Positions 45,177 to 52,825 of a DNA stretch of 64,000 nucleotides are shown piece by piece (position 1 is the stretch's first letter; each line of letters starts with the position of its first letter). The DNA comes from Alistipes sp. (GTDB lineage Bacteria > Bacteroidota > Bacteroidia > Bacteroidales > Rikenellaceae). The notes under the pieces are model-generated. The model was not told the origin of the DNA. It ran no database searches and saw only the letters and a program-made list of their open reading frames with translations. The translations under genes and the position numbers were made by a program. The stretch lies in contig JAFQRH010000007.1 in the NCBI GenBank assembly GCA_017410165.1, forward strand, positions 4,447 to 68,446, given 5' to 3'.

Positions 45177-45599
45177 ATGAAGAGATTGTTTGTAATTCTT
45201 GCAGCGGCACTTACGTTGGCGTCTTGCGAGACCAAAGTGCAGGATGTGCCGGAGATCAGCGTAGAGCAATCCGAATACAGCGTATCATCGACGGGTGGCA
45301 CGATGATTATCCCCGTGTACTCGACCGGCATCGACGATGTGAGGATTTCGTACAAGTGGCACAGCGACGAGTGGGAGACCGACGAGAACGGCGATATGAC
45401 ACCGAAGGAGGGTTGGTGCAAAGTAGTGAAAGTCATCAACGACTACCAAGTAACGCGAGATTTGCCGGCGTGGCTGTCGGGGCTGCAAATCGAAATCAAA
45501 CCGAACGAAGTAGCAGCAGAGCGCACGGCGTACGTCACCGCCAGCAGCTTCACCAAATCGGTGGTAATAACCATCAACCAAACCGCAAAAATGGAGTAG
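45177..45599 (+). CDS. Small lipoprotein with BACON-like domain
   Basis: Lipobox LASC; GWC, IEIKPN....RTAYV, ITINQ. Confidence 0.8.
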   Translation: MKRLFVILAAALTLASCETKVQDVPEISVEQSEYSVSSTGGTMIIPVYSTGIDDVRISYKWHSDEWETDENGDMTPKEGWCKVVKVINDYQVTRDLPAWLSGLQIEIKPNEVAAERTAYVTASSFTKSVVITINQTAKME

Positions 45600-45623
45600 T
45601 TTTCCACGCGCATAACTACGACC

Positions 45624-45657
45624 AAAGAGCCCGTTCCGAAAAAGAACGGGCTTTTTT
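45624..45657 (+). terminator. Rho-independent terminator
   Basis: AAAGAGCCCGTTC/GAACGGGCTTTTTT. Confidence 0.8.
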
Positions 45658-45760
45658 CTGTCGCTTTCGGGTGGCGGCGCTTCACTATTATCAAAAATTG
45701 TGTACCTTTGCCGGCGAAGTCGTGAGACTTTAAGTATTAAAAGACAAACACAACAGAGAG

Positions 45761-46984
45761 ATGAAAGATTTTAACAGCGATTCGAGCAATGCCGTATCGC
45801 GTTTTGCAAAGGACAAACGTCTGCGCACGGCTCGCACCGAGCGTGTCGAGCGAACGGAGCAAAAAAGCAGCCGTTCGGGAGGTTTTGGCGCAACAAAGCG
45901 CACCTCGTACAACCCTAATTTCACATCGGACAACCGCCTCAAAGAGGGCTATCGCAGCGAGCGCAACGAAGGCCGTTCGCAGGGCGGCAAATTCTCGAAG
46001 CCGTACCACAGCGAGGGCGAGCGTTCGACGGGCAAGCGTTTCGGCGAGGGAAAGGCGTTCGGCGGCGAGCGCACATTCGAGCGTGGCGAGCGCCCGCAGG
46101 GTGGCAAGAAGTTCGGCGGAAAGTCGTTCGGCATCAAGCCATTCGGTGGTCGCAAGTCGGAGGGTGGAAAGCCGTTCGGCGGCGAGAAGAAATTCGGCAG
46201 CAAATCGTACGGCAAGCAGCGCGACGAGCGTCCGAAATCGTATCCTAAATACAATCCGAACAAGGTAACGGGCGAGATTCGTCTGAACCGCTTTGTTGCA
46301 CAGTCGGGCCTCTGCTCGCGTCGCGAGGCAGACGACTTTATCACGGCAGGTCTGGTCAGCGTGAACGGCATTATCGTTACGGAGCTCGGCACGAAGGTAA
46401 AACCGACGGACGAGGTGCGTTTCAACGACGAGCGTATTCAGGGCGAAAAGAATGTATATCTGGTACTTAACAAGCCAAAGGGGTATGTTACGACGTTGGA
46501 GGACGACCACGCCGAGAAGACCGTAATGGAGTTGGTCAAAGATGCTTGCACGGAGCGCATCTATCCGGTCGGCCGACTGGACAAGAACTCGCTCGGACTG
46601 TTGCTGTTCACCAACGATGGCGACGTAACACGCAACCTCACGCATCCGTCGCTGCGCAAGAAGAAGATTTACGAGGTGTCGCTCGACAAGCCACTCACAC
46701 GTGCCGATTTCGACCAGTTGGCCGAGGGCGTGACGTTGGAGGATGGCGAGGCGTTTTTCGACGAGATTTCGTGGCTCAAAGATGACAAAAAGTCGGTCGG
46801 CGTGGAGATTCACTCGGGTCGCAACCGCATCGTGCGCCGTATGTTCGAGCATCTTGGCTATCAGGTAACGAAGCTCGACCGTGTATATTACGCCGGACTT
46901 ACGAAGAAAAACCTCAAACGAGGTGCTTGGCGATTCCTCACAAACGACGAGGTAAACCGTATCAAGTCGGGTCGCTACGAATAG
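45761..46984 (+). CDS. rluB: rRNA pseudouridine synthase (RluB/RsuA family) with long low-complexity N-terminus
   Basis: S4 domain RLNRFVAQSGLCSRREAD; NKPKGY, YPVGRLDKNS.GLLL.TNDG, GRNR.VRRM. Confidence 0.88.
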   Translation: MKDFNSDSSNAVSRFAKDKRLRTARTERVERTEQKSSRSGGFGATKRTSYNPNFTSDNRLKEGYRSERNEGRSQGGKFSKPYHSEGERSTGKRFGEGKAFGGERTFERGERPQGGKKFGGKSFGIKPFGGRKSEGGKPFGGEKKFGSKSYGKQRDERPKSYPKYNPNKVTGEIRLNRFVAQSGLCSRREADDFITAGLVSVNGIIVTELGTKVKPTDEVRFNDERIQGEKNVYLVLNKPKGYVTTLEDDHAEKTVMELVKDACTERIYPVGRLDKNSLGLLLFTNDGDVTRNLTHPSLRKKKIYEVSLDKPLTRADFDQLAEGVTLEDGEAFFDEISWLKDDKKSVGVEIHSGRNRIVRRMFEHLGYQVTKLDRVYYAGLTKKNLKRGAWRFLTNDEVNRIKSGRYE

Positions 46985-47004
46985 GCGGCACATAGCCAGC
47001 AGAC

Positions 47005-47043
47005 AAGGGCTGTACGATCGGAGAAGGTCGGCAGCCCTTTTTG
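47005..47043 (+). terminator. Rho-independent terminator
   Basis: AAGGGCTG/CAGCCCTT followed by a T run. Confidence 0.75.
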
Positions 47044-47188
47044 TTTGGTTTGTCCAAAGAGATAAACAGGGATGGATATATGCACTATTTTGCCATTTTA
47101 CCCAAAAATAATGACAATTTACGTAGATATTTTCCACTCTTTTTTGCTATCTTTGTATAAAATTTTATACAAATCAACCTATAAAACA

Positions 47189-47962
47189 ATGAAACGAACC
47201 TTTTTAACCACAATTGTCGCGCTGCTGATAGCGGGCAACGCAATGGCGTGGGACAACCGTAGCCACTCGACCATTGCCCGTATTGCCGAAAAGCACCTGA
47301 CTCCGCGCGCAAAAGCAAACATCGAACGATATATCGACGGTCACAGCGTCGTATATTACGCATCGTGGATGGACTACAATCGTACATTCCCGCCTTATGA
47401 CGTAACGCACGATTGGCACGTCGATTATTGGACCGACGCACAGCGTACGGATGCCGAGGGTAATCCTCTGCCACCGCAGTCGGTCGATAACATCAAGCGC
47501 ATTATGAGAGAGATGAGCGACTTCCGTTCGATGCCCGACTCGGTAGTCAATATCAACATCAAGTATCTTGTTCATCTGGTCGGCGATATGCACTGTCCGG
47601 TACACGTCAATTTTGCAAAGTATCGTCCGTTGAAAATCAAGTGGGGCAAGGAGCAGATAAAGTATCACAAGTTCTACGACGGCTACATCATCGCCCTCAA
47701 ACACAAGAACGCTTCGCCTCTCGCGCTTGCCGACGAGCTCGACCGTGTGGATGATGCCCGCCGTGCAGAGTTGCAGGCAGGAACGCCCGACGATTGGCAC
47801 GAGGAGACACTCCGCTACTCGACCAAAAGTTACGAGTTGCTGCCCGAAGATAAGGTCATCACAGACAAGTATTTGAGTGAGGTTGCACCACTCGCAGAGC
47901 ATCTGCTTGTTGCCGCCGGCTATCGACTCGCACTGATTTTCAACACCATTTTCGACAAATAA
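47189..47962 (+). CDS. S1/P1 nuclease, copy 1 (secreted)
   Basis: AMA|WDNRSH, WMD, WH, HLVGDMHCPVH, YHKFYD, AGYRLA; ATG at 47189. Confidence 0.92.
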   Translation: MKRTFLTTIVALLIAGNAMAWDNRSHSTIARIAEKHLTPRAKANIERYIDGHSVVYYASWMDYNRTFPPYDVTHDWHVDYWTDAQRTDAEGNPLPPQSVDNIKRIMREMSDFRSMPDSVVNINIKYLVHLVGDMHCPVHVNFAKYRPLKIKWGKEQIKYHKFYDGYIIALKHKNASPLALADELDRVDDARRAELQAGTPDDWHEETLRYSTKSYELLPEDKVITDKYLSEVAPLAEHLLVAAGYRLALIFNTIFDK

Positions 47963-47975
47963 AAACGACCTGAAT

Positions 47976-48821
47976 ATGAAGAGATTACTTATATCAATCA
48001 TCGCCCTTCTCGCACTTTCGCCGATGGCAAAGGCGTGGAATGGCCCGTTGCACGCCGCCGTTGCCGAAATCGCCAACGTAAACCTCACACCGGAGGCGCG
48101 CAAGAACATCGAAGCCGCATTGGGCAACCACGGCATTGTATATTACGCCCACTGGATGGACGACGTAGCAAAGACCGAGGGCTACAAGCACGTGAGCAAG
48201 TGGCACAACGTACCACTGACGGCTAAAAACAAAATCATCCCTGCAAAGAAGGCCGCCAAATCGAAGAACGGCACAATCAGCAAGGCGTTGGCTATGGATG
48301 GTTTGGCTCGCGCCATTGCCGCAATCGAGAATCGCGACGCAATATCCGCCGAGGAGTTGAAGGACAACATCCGCTACGTCATCTACATCGTAGGCGACTT
48401 GCACTGTCCGTCGCACTACGTCTTTACGGATATGTTGGAGCAGCGCGCACTCAAATATTTCTATCACAAAGAGAAAAAGCCGCGTTCGTTTATGCGTTTT
48501 TGGGAGAGCGAGGCCATCACTTCGACCTTCTCGTGGCGACCAAGCGAGTTTGTGCACCAACTCAACCGTCTCTCGCCGGAGCAGATTGCCCGCCTGACCG
48601 AAGGCAGTGTCAGCGATTGGGTGAAAGGCAATGCCAAGACCTATCGTCAGATATACTCGCATTTGACACCTAACCAACACTTCGACAAGAAACAATACCG
48701 CATTTGGTTGAACAACTTCTACGAAATGGCGACCGACCAAATCGGCGTTGCCGGCTATCGTTTGGCGGCACTGCTCAACGGTCTGTTTGATGAGTCGGAG
48801 CCAAAAAAGAGCATAAAATAA
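47976..48821 (+). CDS. S1/P1 nuclease, copy 2 (secreted; zinc ligands partly replaced)
   Basis: AKA|WNGPLH, WMD, WH, YIVGDLHCPSH, FMRFWE, AGYRLA. Confidence 0.88.
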   Translation: MKRLLISIIALLALSPMAKAWNGPLHAAVAEIANVNLTPEARKNIEAALGNHGIVYYAHWMDDVAKTEGYKHVSKWHNVPLTAKNKIIPAKKAAKSKNGTISKALAMDGLARAIAAIENRDAISAEELKDNIRYVIYIVGDLHCPSHYVFTDMLEQRALKYFYHKEKKPRSFMRFWESEAITSTFSWRPSEFVHQLNRLSPEQIARLTEGSVSDWVKGNAKTYRQIYSHLTPNQHFDKKQYRIWLNNFYEMATDQIGVAGYRLAALLNGLFDESEPKKSIK

Positions 48822-48840
48822 CCTTCAAAACCAAGACACA

Positions 48841-49644
48841 ATGAAGACAAAACTCACCATACTGACAATCGCCCTCTCCGTATTTGCGGCGAGCACCGCG
48901 TGGGGTTGGGGTCGTGATGCACACGCAACCATCGCCTACATCGCCGAACGACACCTTACGCCGGAGGCAAAGCAAAATATCGAGGCACAAATCGACGGAC
49001 GTTCGATTGTATATTACGCATCGTGGATGGACAACCACGGCGAAGAGGTGCGCCAATGGCGTCACTCGGTATACTACGACCCAATTACACACAAACCAAC
49101 CGGTACGGCATATACCGAGTTGAATACGACTATCGAGAAGTTGCGCGACTACAAGTCGCTCTCGGAGCGTAAGCGCAAAGAGCATATCTACCATCTGGTA
49201 CACGCAATGGGCGACTTCCACTGCCCGGGTCACACCTACCTGTTGAGCGCAGATGGCAAGACCAAGGTCAATACGCACTACGACGTAGTGGGACACGACG
49301 GCAAAGTAACCAGATTCCACACAGTATGGGATTTGCACGTAATTCGCCACTTCCACTCGACATTCGGATATATGGACTTTGCCCACTCGCTCGACAATAA
49401 CCTCTCGCAGGATTATATCGACCACGTGACGGCCGGCAATCTCTACGATTGGTTGTGCGAGACCTGCAACGAGAGTTTGTGGATCTACGATATGGTTCCA
49501 AAGAAGCCGAAGGGCACTCCGAAAGCCGAACTCTCGCGCATCAATATCGTACAGTTGCAAGAGATGGGTCTGCTTGCCGACCGACAGATTGTCAAGGCGG
49601 GTTTGCGCCTGGCAAAGGTGATAAACGAAGTATTCGGGAAATAA
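48841..49644 (+). CDS. S1/P1 nuclease, copy 3 (secreted)
   Basis: AWG|WGRDAH, WMD, WRH, HAMGDFHCPGH, FHTVWD, AGLRLA. Confidence 0.92.
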   Translation: MKTKLTILTIALSVFAASTAWGWGRDAHATIAYIAERHLTPEAKQNIEAQIDGRSIVYYASWMDNHGEEVRQWRHSVYYDPITHKPTGTAYTELNTTIEKLRDYKSLSERKRKEHIYHLVHAMGDFHCPGHTYLLSADGKTKVNTHYDVVGHDGKVTRFHTVWDLHVIRHFHSTFGYMDFAHSLDNNLSQDYIDHVTAGNLYDWLCETCNESLWIYDMVPKKPKGTPKAELSRINIVQLQEMGLLADRQIVKAGLRLAKVINEVFGK

Positions 49645-49659
49645 TCAAATCATAACACA

Positions 49660-50478
49660 ATGAAACGAATCGTATTACTTACATTTGCGCTCCTCGCTCT
49701 GATTGCGCACGACGCGCTTGGTTGGGGACGTTTGGGCCACTACACGGCAGCCGAGATAGCAGAACGCCACCTAACGCCGGAGGCAAAACGTAACATCGAA
49801 CGCTACACGAACGGTACGCCACTCGCCGAGTACTCGGTTTGGATGGACCAAGTGGCAAAAGTACAGCCATACAAGAAACTTTTGCACGGTTGGCACGCCT
49901 CGATTGCAGACACAAAGTGCAAATCGACACCCGAGGTACGCGCAGAGTATCGCAAAAGTCGTGACGGCGTGACGGCAATGGAGTACTTTGCCGAGGAGTT
50001 GCGCAACCGTGAGCAGTTGAGCGACTCGGTAGTGCTGGCGGCCATCAAGTGCATCGTGCATATCATCCCCGACTACCACTGTCCGGCACACGTTCGCTTT
50101 ACCGACTATAAAAATAATGGCGGTTTTGACGTGATATTCTACAACAAACGTGTGCAGTACCACAAGGTGTGGGACTCGGGCGTCATTACGCGAGGTCGCA
50201 AGATTAAGGATTATAAGAAGTATGCCGACGTGCTCGACACCTACACGAAGAAGCAGATTGCACGCGCAACCAAAGGCGATGCGCAGGATTGGTTCGAGCG
50301 TGCAGCGCAACAGGTGCGACCAACCATTCACTCGGTAAAGGCGGGCGACACGTTGGGCGAAGAGTGGGTACAGGAGGTATTGCCTTTCGGCGAGCAGTTG
50401 CTCAAAGAGTCGGGCTACCGCTTGGCAAAGGCACTCAATACGCTATTTGGTGACGAAAAACCTAAAAAATCAAAATAA
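49660..50478 (+). CDS. S1/P1 nuclease, copy 4 (secreted)
   Basis: ALG|WGRLGH, WMD, WH, HIIPDYHCPAH, YHKVWD, SGYRLA. Confidence 0.92.
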   Translation: MKRIVLLTFALLALIAHDALGWGRLGHYTAAEIAERHLTPEAKRNIERYTNGTPLAEYSVWMDQVAKVQPYKKLLHGWHASIADTKCKSTPEVRAEYRKSRDGVTAMEYFAEELRNREQLSDSVVLAAIKCIVHIIPDYHCPAHVRFTDYKNNGGFDVIFYNKRVQYHKVWDSGVITRGRKIKDYKKYADVLDTYTKKQIARATKGDAQDWFERAAQQVRPTIHSVKAGDTLGEEWVQEVLPFGEQLLKESGYRLAKALNTLFGDEKPKKSK

Positions 50479-50487
50479 CACAAATCT

Positions 50488-51660
50488 ATGAAAAAACTTT
50501 TTGCTTTGCTGCTTGCCATCACACCATTGGTAGCAACAGCGCAGTACAATCCGGACATTATCTACACCGACATCTCGAAGGCGCCTCTGCGCACAGAGAT
50601 TATCCTCCCCGAGGTAAACGGCTACACGCTCTACAAGGCCGACCTTCACATCCACACCATCTACTCGGATGGCGACTGCACGCCGACCTATCGCGTACGC
50701 GAGGCGTGGAATGACGGTCTGGATATTATCGCCATCACCGACCATATCGAGTATCGTCGTCACGAGCCACGCTGGTTGGAGTTCTTGAAGGGATACACCG
50801 GTGGCGAAGCAATCAAGGCACGCAACCGCAACGTAATCAAAACGCCGGCGACCGAGGAGGGCATTCTCGTCGATTTGAATTATGGCGTCAAAGAGGCCGT
50901 GAAGGCAGCCGAGAAGTACGATATGCTCGTAATTCCGGCGGCAGAGATTACCCGCGAGCCGGTCAATATCGGCCACTACAACGTACTCTTTACCACCGAC
51001 AACAACAAGATTTACGATCCGGACCCGTTGCAGTCGATGCGCAACGCTCGCAAGCAGGGCGCACTCATTATGCACAACCACCCGGGTTGGAAGCGCAAGA
51101 GCGTTGCCAAGACCGAGTTCGAGTTGCAGGCATACAGCGAGGGTCTTATCGATGGTATCGAGGTTGTGAACGGCGTGCAGTTCTATCCGAAAATCATCGA
51201 CCGCGCCGTTACCGAAAACCTTTTTATGGCATCCAATACGGATATCCACCCTACGACTGCCGAGCACTATCGTATGAAGGGCGACTTCCGCAATATGACC
51301 TTCATCCTTGCAAAGGACAAGTCGCTCAAATCGATTCGCGAAGCGTTGGAGGCACGTCGCACGATATGCTACTCGGGCGGTCAGGTAATCGGCGAGGAGT
51401 CGTTGCTCAAAGCACTCTTCGACAGTTCGATTAAGGCGCAGGTTATCAGCACCGACAAGAAGAATCAGACCATTGCCGTAACCAATATGTCGTCGCTCAA
51501 CTACAAGTTGCGTCGCGGCAGAGGCATCACTCACGACCTTACCCCTTTCCAAACGATTATCTTCACCATCGAGAAGGGCAAACCACTGACTGCCAAGGTT
51601 ATGAATATGTGGTGTGGCGAAAAGAACCATCCAAACGTAGAGATTAAGGCGAAGAAGTAG
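50488..51660 (+). CDS. Secreted PHP-domain phosphoesterase
   Basis: Signal peptide (ATA-Q); DLHIHTIYSDG, ITDHIE, EIT...GHYN, NHPGW, IEVVNG, NTDIH. Confidence 0.9.
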   Translation: MKKLFALLLAITPLVATAQYNPDIIYTDISKAPLRTEIILPEVNGYTLYKADLHIHTIYSDGDCTPTYRVREAWNDGLDIIAITDHIEYRRHEPRWLEFLKGYTGGEAIKARNRNVIKTPATEEGILVDLNYGVKEAVKAAEKYDMLVIPAAEITREPVNIGHYNVLFTTDNNKIYDPDPLQSMRNARKQGALIMHNHPGWKRKSVAKTEFELQAYSEGLIDGIEVVNGVQFYPKIIDRAVTENLFMASNTDIHPTTAEHYRMKGDFRNMTFILAKDKSLKSIREALEARRTICYSGGQVIGEESLLKALFDSSIKAQVISTDKKNQTIAVTNMSSLNYKLRRGRGITHDLTPFQTIIFTIEKGKPLTAKVMNMWCGEKNHPNVEIKAKK

Positions 51661-51677
51661 GCAATCGGATTCACTTC

Positions 51678-51717
51678 AAACAAAACCGGAGTGGCTTGCG
51701 CTACTCCGGTTTTGTTT
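51678..51717. terminator. Bidirectional terminator
   Basis: AAACAAAACCGGAGT/ACTCCGGTTTTGTTT. Confidence 0.85.
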
Positions 51718-52825
51718 GGTGGAAGACCTCGACGATTTTGTTACACATTGCCGGCCACGAGAAGCGTTTGCGCTCGTGGGCGATATTGCGACGGAAACGG
51801 TCGAGATTACCCTCCTTATAGAGTTGCTCGATGGCATCCATCACGCCCTCGACCGTCGGAGGGCAGACATAGCCGACCTTATCGTCGGGCACAATTTCGG
51901 GCAGACCACCGACATCGGTAACAATCATCGGCAGGTGGAAATTGTAGGCAATTTGCGTCACTCCGCTCTGCGTCGCCGTACGATACGGCAACACAAGCGC
52001 ATCCGCCACCGAGAAGTAGTACTTCACATCGGCATCGGCAATAAAGCGGTCGTGCAACACGACACTCGCTCCGAGTCGTGCAAACAGCGGAGCGTAACGC
52101 TCCTTATCGTCGTAAAATTCGCCTGCGACAATCAGTTTCTGTCCATCGCGTCGCACGCGCGACCACGCTTCGAGCAGTATATCAAGGCCCTTATACTCGC
52201 GAATCAAGCCAAAGAACAACAGATACTGCAAGTTGGCATCCAGCCCCAATGCGCGGCACGCCTCGGCGCGCTCGACGCGCTCGCCAAAGTTCGAGAACAT
52301 CGGATGTGGCGAGAAGAGTGCCGGTACGGAGGTATATTCGCGCAGTTCGCCGTGCACCTGTTCGGACATATACACAAAGCCATCGACCGCGCGCAGATAG
52401 TATCGGTTGAATGGGCGGTCGATGATATGGCGCTCGTGCGGCTCGACATTATCAATCTGGCAGATGAATTTCGTATGACCGTTACCGCGAGCGATGCGGG
52501 CAATCGTACCAAAGCACGGAGCCATAAACGGTGTCCAATACTTCATCAGCACCATATCGGGTCGCTCGCGACGCAGGCGCAAACCCAACCGAATCCAATT
52601 CAGCGGGTTGCAGGTATTCATCACGCGCTCGATATGCAAATCCGTCGGTGCAGGCGTATCGACCGTCTGGCTCTTGCCCGGAAAAAGCAACGACGGATAC
52701 TGCAACGAAAAGGTGTAGATGCGCACCTCGTCGCCGCGTCGCATATATTCGCGCGCCATCGTCTCCATAATCGAAGCCAAGCCACCGCGATACGGGTGTG
52801 CCGGCCCTAAAATTACGATTTTCAT
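51701..52825 (-). CDS. Glycosyltransferase family 4 (GT-B)
   Basis: GPAHPYRGG, FFGLIREYKGLD, LPYRTATQSGV, TDVGGLPE. Confidence 0.93.
   Translation of the reverse strand: MKIVILGPAHPYRGGLASIMETMAREYMRRGDEVRIYTFSLQYPSLLFPGKSQTVDTPAPTDLHIERVMNTCNPLNWIRLGLRLRRERPDMVLMKYWTPFMAPCFGTIARIARGNGHTKFICQIDNVEPHERHIIDRPFNRYYLRAVDGFVYMSEQVHGELREYTSVPALFSPHPMFSNFGERVERAEACRALGLDANLQYLLFFGLIREYKGLDILLEAWSRVRRDGQKLIVAGEFYDDKERYAPLFARLGASVVLHDRFIADADVKYYFSVADALVLPYRTATQSGVTQIAYNFHLPMIVTDVGGLPEIVPDDKVGYVCPPTVEGVMDAIEQLYKEGNLDRFRRNIAHERKRFSWPAMCNKIVEVFHQTKPE

Follow-up and report, generated by a model that had tools for sequence, protein, structure and literature searches.

What would a gut bacterium do with four secreted nucleases of a single family, encoded one behind the other, and with a phosphoesterase directly after them? 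This question is raised by a five-gene locus of Alistipes sp. (Rikenellaceae; contig JAFQRH010000007.1 of assembly GCA_017410165.1), situated in the 64,000-nucleotide stretch of DNA that we analysed as a whole and refer to here as the window. A first-pass annotation made from the sequence alone had read the locus as an operon of four diverged S1/P1 nucleases and a PHP-domain phosphoesterase, with a division of labour in the breakdown of nucleic acids outside the cytoplasm. In the present study we arrive, with a probability of roughly 0.55, at an exported module for the salvage of nucleic acids and nucleotides, as the sequences suggest, in which three predicted nucleases and a PHP protein would work beside a conserved pseudo-nuclease.

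The five genes all lie on the forward strand and each begins with ATG: N1 (47189-47962, 257 amino acids (aa)), N2 (47976-48821, 281 aa), N3 (48841-49644, 267 aa), N4 (49660-50478, 272 aa), which is the most canonical of the four copies, and the PHP gene (50488-51660, 390 aa), whose product is predicted to be a secreted PHP phosphoesterase with two domains, belonging to the 3E38/Sb-PDE clade. The gaps between them measure 13, 19, 15 and 9 nucleotides (nt), so that the layout first described, with 13-19 nt between the nuclease genes, the PHP gene 9 nt further on and a terminator closing the run, is confirmed from the open reading frames (ORFs) and from RNA folding.

All four nuclease-like proteins match PF02265 far above its curated cut-off of 29.5 bits (N1, E = 2e-29, 103.7 bits; N2, 1.3e-22, 81.3 bits; N3, 4.3e-24, 86.2 bits; N4, 1.2e-36, 127.4 bits), and the matches run from model positions 1-6 to 257-258, that is, over the full length of the family. 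Within the window they share pairwise identities of 29-34%, and an NCBIfam search found no model matching any of them. The closest solved relative of N4 is SmNuc1 of Stenotrophomonas maltophilia (8QJL, E = 4.4e-24), followed by the plant enzymes TBN1 and AtBFN2 and by the fungal S1 and P1 nucleases; in every one of these alignments Trp22 of N4 pairs with residue 1 of the mature chain. The hydrophobic leader of N1, MKRTFLTTIVALLIAGNAMA, stops at AMA directly before a Trp, and those of N2, N3 and N4 stop in the same way at SPMAKA, ASTAWG and AHDALG, all with an A-x-A or A-x-G pattern. From this pattern at positions -3 and -1, together with homology, we infer cleavage directly before Trp1, and the cut must fall exactly there because the free amino group of Trp1 is itself a zinc ligand. 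The claim that the leaders end directly before this residue thus holds in the light of the mature crystallised enzymes. Two single-copy homologues (L053:9779-10735 and L057:9944-10735) carry Phe in place of Trp1, whose main chain binds zinc at the N-terminus.

The ligands are given in P1-nuclease numbering, namely Trp1, His6, Asp45, His60, His116, Asp120, His126, His149 and Asp153. The trinuclear zinc cluster of S1/P1 enzymes is held by nine ligands, one Trp, five His and three Asp (PMC4144908, PMC11705217), which in SmNuc1 are Trp27, His32, Asp71, His88, His141, Asp145, His151, His175 and Asp179 (PMC11705217). All nine are present in the window copy of N1 and in 32/32 of its orthologues, and likewise in N4 and in 66/66 orthologues. 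N3 keeps eight ligands in register in 34/34 orthologues; its His60 column is occupied by Arg, Ser or Ala, with a His one residue later in 31/34 orthologues, beside a six-residue deletion (W-R-H in the window copy), and this displacement is probably a register shift of one residue. N1, N3 and N4 are predicted to be competent trinuclear-zinc S1/P1 enzymes.

N2 departs from this scheme. In the window copy His116 is replaced by Tyr, His149 by Met and Asp153 by Glu, and each of the 33 orthologues has lost three to five of the nine ligands: His149 is absent from all 33, and only L018 and L052 still have His116, the other 31 carrying a replacement; Glu stands for Asp153 in 29, and 22 orthologues are without Asp45 and 19 without His60. 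Trp1, Asp120 and His126 are retained in all 33 orthologues and His6 in 31 of them, and the further orthologues in loci L086-L098 repeat the ligand pattern, L086 and L087 also having His116. In terms of the zinc sites known from P1 and phospholipase C, the retained residues presumably make up one complete zinc site (Trp1, His6, Asp120), the other two being destroyed. N2 is thus predicted to be unable to assemble the Zn1 and Zn2 sites. Since the nucleophilic water of S1/P1 enzymes sits between Zn1 and Zn3 (PMC4144908), N2 should not catalyse the reaction of the family. The original count of four nucleases therefore stands for four members of PF02265, and fails for N2 as an enzyme.

The fold of N2 has nevertheless been preserved. 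An AlphaFold2 model built with 48 homologues reached a predicted local distance difference test score of 88.6 and a predicted template modelling (TM) score of 0.86, and its top 21 matches in the PDB were all S1/P1 nucleases, at TM 0.65-0.78 (SmNuc1, AtBFN2, S1 and P1 among them). The Ala-Trp at the end of the leader is invariant in the 48 homologues, and the residues invariant within the group are rich in aromatic and basic side chains (K92, Y148, W187, E191, H194, R198, W215, N219, Y223, R242, W244 and N246). The ratio of nonsynonymous to synonymous substitution rates (dN/dS) of N2 is 0.04-0.05 within the species and 0.11 against locus L008, the most uniformly similar one, values as low as those of the neighbouring genes. 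A decaying pseudogene is ruled out by dN/dS of 0.04-0.3, by an intact ORF in all orthologues and by the confident fold. In a collection of 5.8 billion proteins the N2 type comprises about 50 clusters at 39% identity or more, after which identity drops to 31%. Judging from sequence and predicted structure, N2 is most aptly called a conserved, secreted pseudo-nuclease, a member of the family by descent and fold, and it most likely acts as a non-catalytic subunit that binds substrate or a partner.

The other three paralogues differ from one another close to the metal site. The nucleoside-binding site of SmNuc1 is formed by Tyr89 and Asn91, which come after the zinc ligand His88 (PMC11705217). The corresponding signature is H-V-D-Y in 32/32 orthologues of N1, H-A-S-[I/V] in those of N4 (with the Ala in 66/66) and x-H-[V/T/S]-[C/A] in N3; unlike these three, N2 is variable at the positions after His60. 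The mature proteins also differ in isoelectric point (pI), at 6.3 for N1, 9.3 for N2, 6.9 for N3 and 9.3 for N4. These distinct pockets, together with the differing charge, suggest, if only indirectly, different preferences for base, sugar or length of the substrate.

A further feature is shared by all Bacteroidales copies, single or arrayed, whose metal-binding motif reads H-C-P-x-H, as against H-Q-P-x-H in the characterised enzymes. Its Cys is nearly invariant in all groups, N2 included, and is the sole cysteine of mature N1 and N2, so that in these two proteins it is not engaged in a disulfide. In the second N4-type copy that some arrays possess (N4'), Asn replaces the first His of H-C-P, a position that is not a ligand; this exchange marks a distinct sub-lineage of N4 and was seen in L021, L027, L028, L030, L035, L036, L041, L048, L049, L051, L090, L091, L094 and L096.

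The PHP protein matches PF02811 (E = 1.4e-9, 38.9 bits, cut-off 26.4) and, over both of its domains, the structure 3E38 from Bacteroides vulgatus (E = 2e-59 in two stretches), and it matches little else; a profile search against 3E38 gave E = 1.5e-81 and extended the reach to residue 379 of 390. The metal ligands H54, H56, D61, H86, E153, H163, H198, D252 and H254 are present and invariant in 27 homologues, and this set of nine matches the trinuclear ligand list of the clade (PMC11656708). Within this clade 3E38 is the sole structure and known activity is limited to two members, the phosphodiesterases Sb-PDE and No-PDE, the other homologues being of unknown function (PMC11656708). The leader ends in LVATA before Gln, in a cleavage context, A-x-A before Q, that is invariant among the homologues, and the N-terminal Gln fits the "Q-rule" for signal peptidase I substrates in Bacteroidetes (PMC5837995, PMC10653852); the nucleases break this rule because they need a free Trp1. 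The label "histidinol-phosphatase" that Alistipes PHP proteins bear in public records is unlikely in view of the export signal. NCBIfam gave only sub-threshold matches, CehA/McbA at 73.5 against a cut-off of 80, and the short matches of its pAp phosphatase and RNase RNM models over the N-terminal PHP motif are no basis for a function. The recurrent position of the PHP gene behind S1/P1 genes is a context clue that its natural substrate may be nucleotide-derived.

The anatomy of the locus is that of a single operon as far as its sequence goes, namely one strand, short unstructured spacers, one promoter and flanking terminators. The four internal spacers fold at 0 to -2.4 kcal/mol, the same as shuffled sequences. 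On the left, the rluB-like gene (45761-46984, +) ends in a hairpin with a U-run at 46994-47050 (+; dG -30.9 kcal/mol, z -6.1), whose stability was matched by 0 of 200 shuffled sequences, and on the right a bidirectional hairpin at 51672-51721 (dG -34.1 kcal/mol, z -9.0), with U/A runs on both sides, serves both the operon and a convergent glycosyltransferase gene (51701-52825, -). The promoter would be a -7 box of the Bacteroidetes type, TATCTTTG (47148-47155, +), 33 nt 5' of the N1 ATG, the Bacteroidetes consensus being TAnnTTTG. A TA[TC]CTTTG box stands at a similar distance 5' of N1 in nearly all orthologous arrays, and the only other TAnnTTTG within the operon lies inside the N4 coding sequence; the second N1 copy of the eight-gene array L049 lacks the box and directly abuts the preceding gene. 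Some gene callers give a longer N1 ORF from 47072 (296 aa), yet the start is to be placed at 47189, because the longer ORF contains the -7 box and MK[KR] opens every orthologue.

Two scans were of little use for this delimitation. A sigma-70 promoter scan (6 sites, 7.1 expected) was uninformative, that promoter type being the wrong one for Bacteroidetes, and a simple terminator scan (11, with 9.8 expected) missed both real hairpins and was replaced by RNA folding. At a permissive threshold Rfam found no riboswitch or leader 5' of the operon, only four weak matches far below their gathering scores. Contigs from gut metatranscriptomes span every internal junction (X1: 47351-48251, 48405-49575 and 50359-51082; X5: 49543-49840), with the limits that these are assembled, strandless contigs of depth 3-17, that the depth is flat over the flanks and that carry-over of DNA is possible. 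The locus is probably expressed in the gut, and co-transcription of the five genes is consistent with the anatomy.

How widely such an arrangement occurs was addressed with two locus scans, each based on short peptide patterns from the query and limited to 80 loci, which constitute a sample and not a census; S1/P1 and PHP ORFs were counted in 79 retrieved loci with a hidden Markov model built from the four paralogues. Eight tandem S1/P1 genes were found in 2 of these loci, five in 13, four in 14, three in 3, two in 5 and a single gene in 42. Among the 29 loci with at least four copies, a PHP gene follows in 22, is absent from 5 and cannot be judged in 2 where the contig ends. The cassette was recovered from at least 29 species-level genomes, nearly all labelled Alistipes or Rikenellaceae and mostly derived from metagenome-assembled genomes (MAGs) of cattle, sheep, goat, deer, buffalo and horse gut, with some from human gut; a four-gene version without PHP occurs in the human gut assemblies L019, L092 and L093. 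Independent gene calls with Pfam labels likewise place arrays of four and five copies upstream of PHP homologues 55% identical to the window protein.

Distant relatives (at most 40% identity) possess a single copy, apart from L061 and L082 with two each, and no PHP gene within 10 kb; single-copy carriers include Alistipes putredinis, A. montrealensis, Parabacteroides, Prevotella, Muribaculaceae, Bacteroides thetaiotaomicron and an Ereboglobus MAG, and about 70 further contigs from human-gut metagenomes show the same pattern. The array is therefore not routine across the sampled Bacteroidales, yet it is the rule within one Alistipes clade. This agrees with the first-pass annotation, which took one or two copies to be the usual number in bacteria (the other Bacteroidales sampled have one, rarely two), except that the array is not peculiar to the source genome and proves to be a clade-wide cassette with four to eight copies. 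The exact N4 protein occurs in 95 blocks of public metagenome assemblies, in the five-gene context every time, and the window DNA is present in gut and sheep-gut metagenomes. In the GTDB collection, with one genome per species, the closest locus is 77% identical (an Alistipes sp. MAG from cattle caecum) and no representative exceeds 77% identity to N4, so the window lineage appears to be an Alistipes without a close species representative there; the most uniformly similar locus, L008, reaches 74-81%.

The history of the paralogues supports the notion that they are distinct entities of long standing. By best-match assignment and in a neighbour-joining tree of 202 domain sequences the orthologues of N1, N2, N3 and N4 each form one clade (that of N3 consisting of 33 labelled N3 sequences and one low-identity orthologue), with mean identities of 53-63% within orthogroups as against 25-33% between them. 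A count of PF02265 copies and of synteny had been set beforehand as a check, and it found the order kept in Alistipes/Rikenellaceae arrays of 4, 5 or 8 copies. The order is invariably N1-N2-N3-N4, five-gene arrays adding the N4' copy; 22 of the 29 arrays with at least four copies show the full succession N1-N2-N3-N4(-N4')-PHP, and the two eight-gene arrays are block duplications, N1-N2-N3-N4'-N1-N2-N3-N4-PHP in L049 (L049:4312-11999) and N1-N2-N3-N1-N2-N3-N4'-N4-PHP in L036 (L036:3074-10929). The flanks vary over at least three contexts, with rluB ahead of the array in the window and its closest relatives, rplU-rpmA ahead of it in L086 and L090, and different neighbours elsewhere; because the flanking genes differ between lineages, it is the cassette that is conserved as a unit and not its surroundings. 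In L040 and L050 the PHP gene stands on the opposite strand beside two or three N4-type genes, a second link between the two families.

Within the species, dN/dS of the five genes is 0.00-0.05; in comparisons with other species, for which dS is close to saturation, it is 0.11-0.32. For N1 the values span 0.02-0.27, and all five genes are under purifying selection. A division of labour fits these observations: the order of the genes is fixed, purifying selection acts on all of them, each orthogroup is monophyletic, and three of the four have conserved residues of their own after His60. Dosage as the only reason for the copy number of N1-N4 was rejected, since these genes are ancient, share 25-33% identity and stand in a fixed order; it is a possible explanation for N4', a recent copy, and for the block duplications.

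Two observations concern rearrangement of the cassette. The array of L007 (L007:353-5026) looks like a mosaic in which N4 and PHP share 77% and 76% identity with the window and N1, N2 and N3 only 60%, 48% and 45%, the latter three resembling those of the lineages with five-gene arrays; Alistipes lineages may thus have recombined with one another inside the cassette. Directly 3' of the PHP gene, some relatives carry a tyrosine recombinase (Phage_integrase; L086:8691-9821) or phage-like genes (L049:12250-18439), which may bear on how the cassette changed its genomic context.

Taken as an exported salvage module, the cassette would operate as follows. Its products would leave the cytoplasm by Sec, and their leaders would be cut by signal peptidase I; N1, N3 and N4 would release 5'-nucleotides from single-stranded DNA and RNA by cutting the P-O3' bond and would strip 3'-phosphates, each with its own preference, and N2 would bind substrate or partner an active copy. 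The PHP protein would then hydrolyse what is left over, be it short 5'-phosphorylated oligonucleotides, 2',3'-cyclic phosphates or 5'-nucleotides, a finishing role in favour of which we count that the characterised members of its clade are diesterases, and nucleosides and phosphate would be imported. The periplasm, possibly also the lumen of vesicles, would be the location by default, because the leaders are plain signal peptidase I leaders without a lipobox and the proteins are single-domain ones without room for the C-terminal domain of the type IX secretion system. Of the two sites proposed at the outset, extracellular or periplasmic, it is thus the periplasm that we retain, and the same features do not favour the medium.

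More tentatively, N2 may represent a new type of S1/P1-derived pseudoenzyme, a secreted basic protein deprived of its metal sites that would take hold of nucleic acid or associate with the active paralogues, in a cassette serving as a locus of nucleic-acid utilisation and with a PHP substrate derived from nucleotides. In that event N2 would set the specificity or processivity of the active paralogues, and gut Rikenellaceae would possess, in the cassette with its 3E38-type PHP protein, a dedicated "nucleic-acid utilisation locus" of several components. The class of natural substrates of the 3E38 clade, an orphan so far, would then come to light as nucleotide-derived.

Several points weigh against the salvage module. 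Every substrate named above is deduced from sequence. In the 10 kb to either side, the genes with Pfam labels include neither an oligonucleotide or nucleoside transporter nor a TonB-dependent receptor or SusC/D pair, which leaves no evident route by which a polymer would reach periplasmic enzymes. Other residues take the place of SmNuc1's base-stacking Tyr89 and Asn91, both in all four paralogues and in the Bacteroidales genes that occur singly, so that substrate choice could differ from that of the textbook enzymes. The PHP partner is frequent and not obligatory, since five arrays with enough flanking sequence do without it, and a PHP homologue 52% identical to that of the window (L088) has no nuclease neighbour. 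Lastly, one metatranscriptome contig (46497-47296) crosses the upstream terminator too, at similar depth.

What else could the cassette do? It may be that the module processes small phosphoesters, such as 3'-nucleotides, 2',3'-cyclic nucleotides, cyclic dinucleotides or 3'-phosphorylated cofactors, with each paralogue tuned to a different one of them and the PHP protein acting as the diesterase, a reading we consider doubtful. S1/P1 enzymes are indeed 3'-nucleotidases as well, SmNuc1 cleaves cyclic di-GMP at about 220 per second (PMC11705217), the known members of the PHP clade are diesterases on small molecules (PMC11656708), the residues after His60 differ by orthogroup, and small molecules would cross the outer membrane without a polymer importer, of which none was seen nearby. 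But nothing in this separates small phosphoesters from the digestion of polymers, and the two readings can hold together; the neighbouring genes include none for signalling or for a cyclase, and the pI of 9.3 of N2 and N4, together with Lys-rich tails, fits the binding of a polyanion. Action on biofilm, competitor or neutrophil extracellular trap (NET) DNA, with the enzymes released, for example, in outer-membrane vesicles and serving colonisation or competition instead of feeding, appears unlikely to us. Such a role could draw on the export signals, and the duplication up to eight copies and the mosaic L007 array hint at ongoing selection, whereas the overall dN/dS is well below 1. Moreover, the proteins have no lipoprotein signal and are too short for a type IX C-terminal domain, which leaves no evident route past the periplasm, and S1/P1 enzymes are established to prefer single strands when the DNA of biofilms and NETs is double-stranded.

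A barrier against foreign nucleic acid (phage genomes, conjugative single-stranded DNA, transformation) is very improbable in our opinion. Nucleases placed outside the cytoplasm and an expanded gene family would suit it, and yet PADLOC returned no family for any of the five proteins at E<=0.01, the window shows neither a defence island nor an integrase or a mobile context in the surrounding 10 kb, and the placement after rplU-rpmA in relatives is housekeeping-like and unlike that of defence islands. In addition, phage and conjugative DNA normally bypass the periplasm via dedicated channels. Among the roles listed in the first-pass annotation, those of NET and biofilm degradation, of destroying cyclic-nucleotide signals and of a barrier to single-stranded DNA found nothing in their favour in this analysis. 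Just as little credence can be given to an action on phosphoesters other than nucleic acids, for instance on phospholipids in the manner of the zinc-dependent phospholipases C (PLC), with which S1/P1 nucleases share their fold and metal site. One N4 orthologue has a weak precomputed match to PF00882, and the Glu of N2 at the Asp153 position is also that of PLC; on the other hand, all four proteins match PF02265 strongly with no PLC match at E<=0.01, and the N2 model aligns with clostridial alpha-toxins at TM 0.39 as against 0.65-0.78 with nucleases. The idea of a polymorphic toxin was rejected, as the one paper found to connect "S1-P1 nuclease" with Bacteroides deals with the Het-C toxin domain, which is only distantly related.

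The salvage module, as we prefer to read the locus, can be set beside several known systems. Like the proteins of the window, SmNuc1 is bacterial and has a leader followed by a zinc-binding N-terminal Trp; its nine ligands are those of N1 and N4, and of N3 with a probable register shift, and its helical fold is also that of N2 (8QJL, PMC11705217). It differs in being encoded by a single gene, with no PHP partner and no dead paralogue, and in having Tyr89/Asn91 and H-Q-P where V/D/Y, A/S/I and the like and H-C-P are found here. Plants, too, hold several diverged S1/P1 paralogues. The plant enzymes TBN1 and AtBFN2 and the fungal S1 and P1 (5FB9, 1AK0, 3SNG, 4CWM) have family, fold and trinuclear zinc chemistry in common with the cassette, but they are eukaryotic glycoproteins of dispersed genes without an operon, at 15-19% identity to N2 in structural alignments.

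With regard to nutrition, the class I 3'-nucleotidase/nuclease of trypanosomatids, an S1/P1-family enzyme, acts outside the cell in the salvage of purines and phosphate. Although a membrane-anchored surface enzyme of eukaryotes, it would be the closest functional precedent for the nutritional role proposed in Alistipes. Enterobacteria scavenge in the periplasm with EndA, CpdB, UshA and AphA, a nuclease and phosphoesterases that yield importable nucleosides and phosphate; the proposed logic would be the same, in unrelated families with dispersed genes and without an array of paralogues. For N2, the SusE/F-type surface glycan-binding proteins, non-catalytic binders encoded beside enzymes in Bacteroidetes, may offer a precedent as a binding partner, the difference being that SusE/F are glycan lipoproteins and not derived from S1/P1. 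As to the PHP protein, its known relatives are 3E38, which it matches over both domains, and Sb-PDE/No-PDE (PMC11656708), and it keeps all nine metal ligands; compared with 3E38, the window protein has about 30 extra residues after His86, and it sits behind nucleases, whereas Sb-PDE acts on flame-retardant diesters in Sphingomonadaceae (PMC11656708).

Bacterial S1/P1 nucleases have been barely studied, and the only characterised members that we found named in the literature are the Mesorhizobium M1 nuclease and SmNuc1. Our literature search found no characterised S1/P1 member from Bacteroidota and nothing relevant that joins S1/P1 with Bacteroidetes, Alistipes, periplasm or extracellular DNA; nor did it yield a description of an ordered array of four to eight copies, of a maintained dead paralogue or of a coupling to a 3E38-type PHP protein. 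With three to seven diverged enzymes encoded together beside a conserved dead copy, the locus is a natural system in which to ask how specificity evolves in a family used in biotechnology and what a dead member does. From genomic context it also provides the first clue to what the 3E38-type PHP proteins act on, and these form a large family of gut Bacteroidales whose routine annotation as histidinol phosphatase is wrong. The locus suggests, moreover, that an Alistipes clade frequent in the guts of herbivores, and found in humans too, invests heavily in the harvest of nucleic acids freed by other microbes. If the enzymes were redundant, the finding would shrink to a lineage-specific expansion of a gene family. 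We regard it as a case of paralogue specialisation and pseudoenzyme retention, one that opens no long-standing question.

Around the operon, a few neighbours deserve mention. About 6-9 kb 3' of it, a contig of the same species (L001:17867-20819) encodes a NagD-type phosphatase of the haloacid dehalogenase superfamily (Hydrolase_6/Hydrolase_like), a 554-aa transporter of the major facilitator superfamily and adenylosuccinate synthetase; this trio could relate to nucleotide metabolism, and it does not travel with the cassette in other lineages. Upstream, one of the sub-threshold Rfam matches, to the Thr operon leader (45555-45660, +; 32 bits, the gathering score being 55; E = 0.006), falls at the end of the gene for a predicted 140-aa lipoprotein and is most likely due to chance or to a terminator-like hairpin. 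This lipoprotein (45177-45599, +; leader ending in LTLASC) has a BACON-domain match below threshold only and no Pfam family on record, and it is conserved in all contigs of the same species. Next to it, the RluB-like pseudouridine synthase encoded directly before the operon (S4 and PseudoU_synth_2 domains) bears an N-terminal extension of about 170 residues, rich in Lys, Arg, Gly and Ser and of low complexity.

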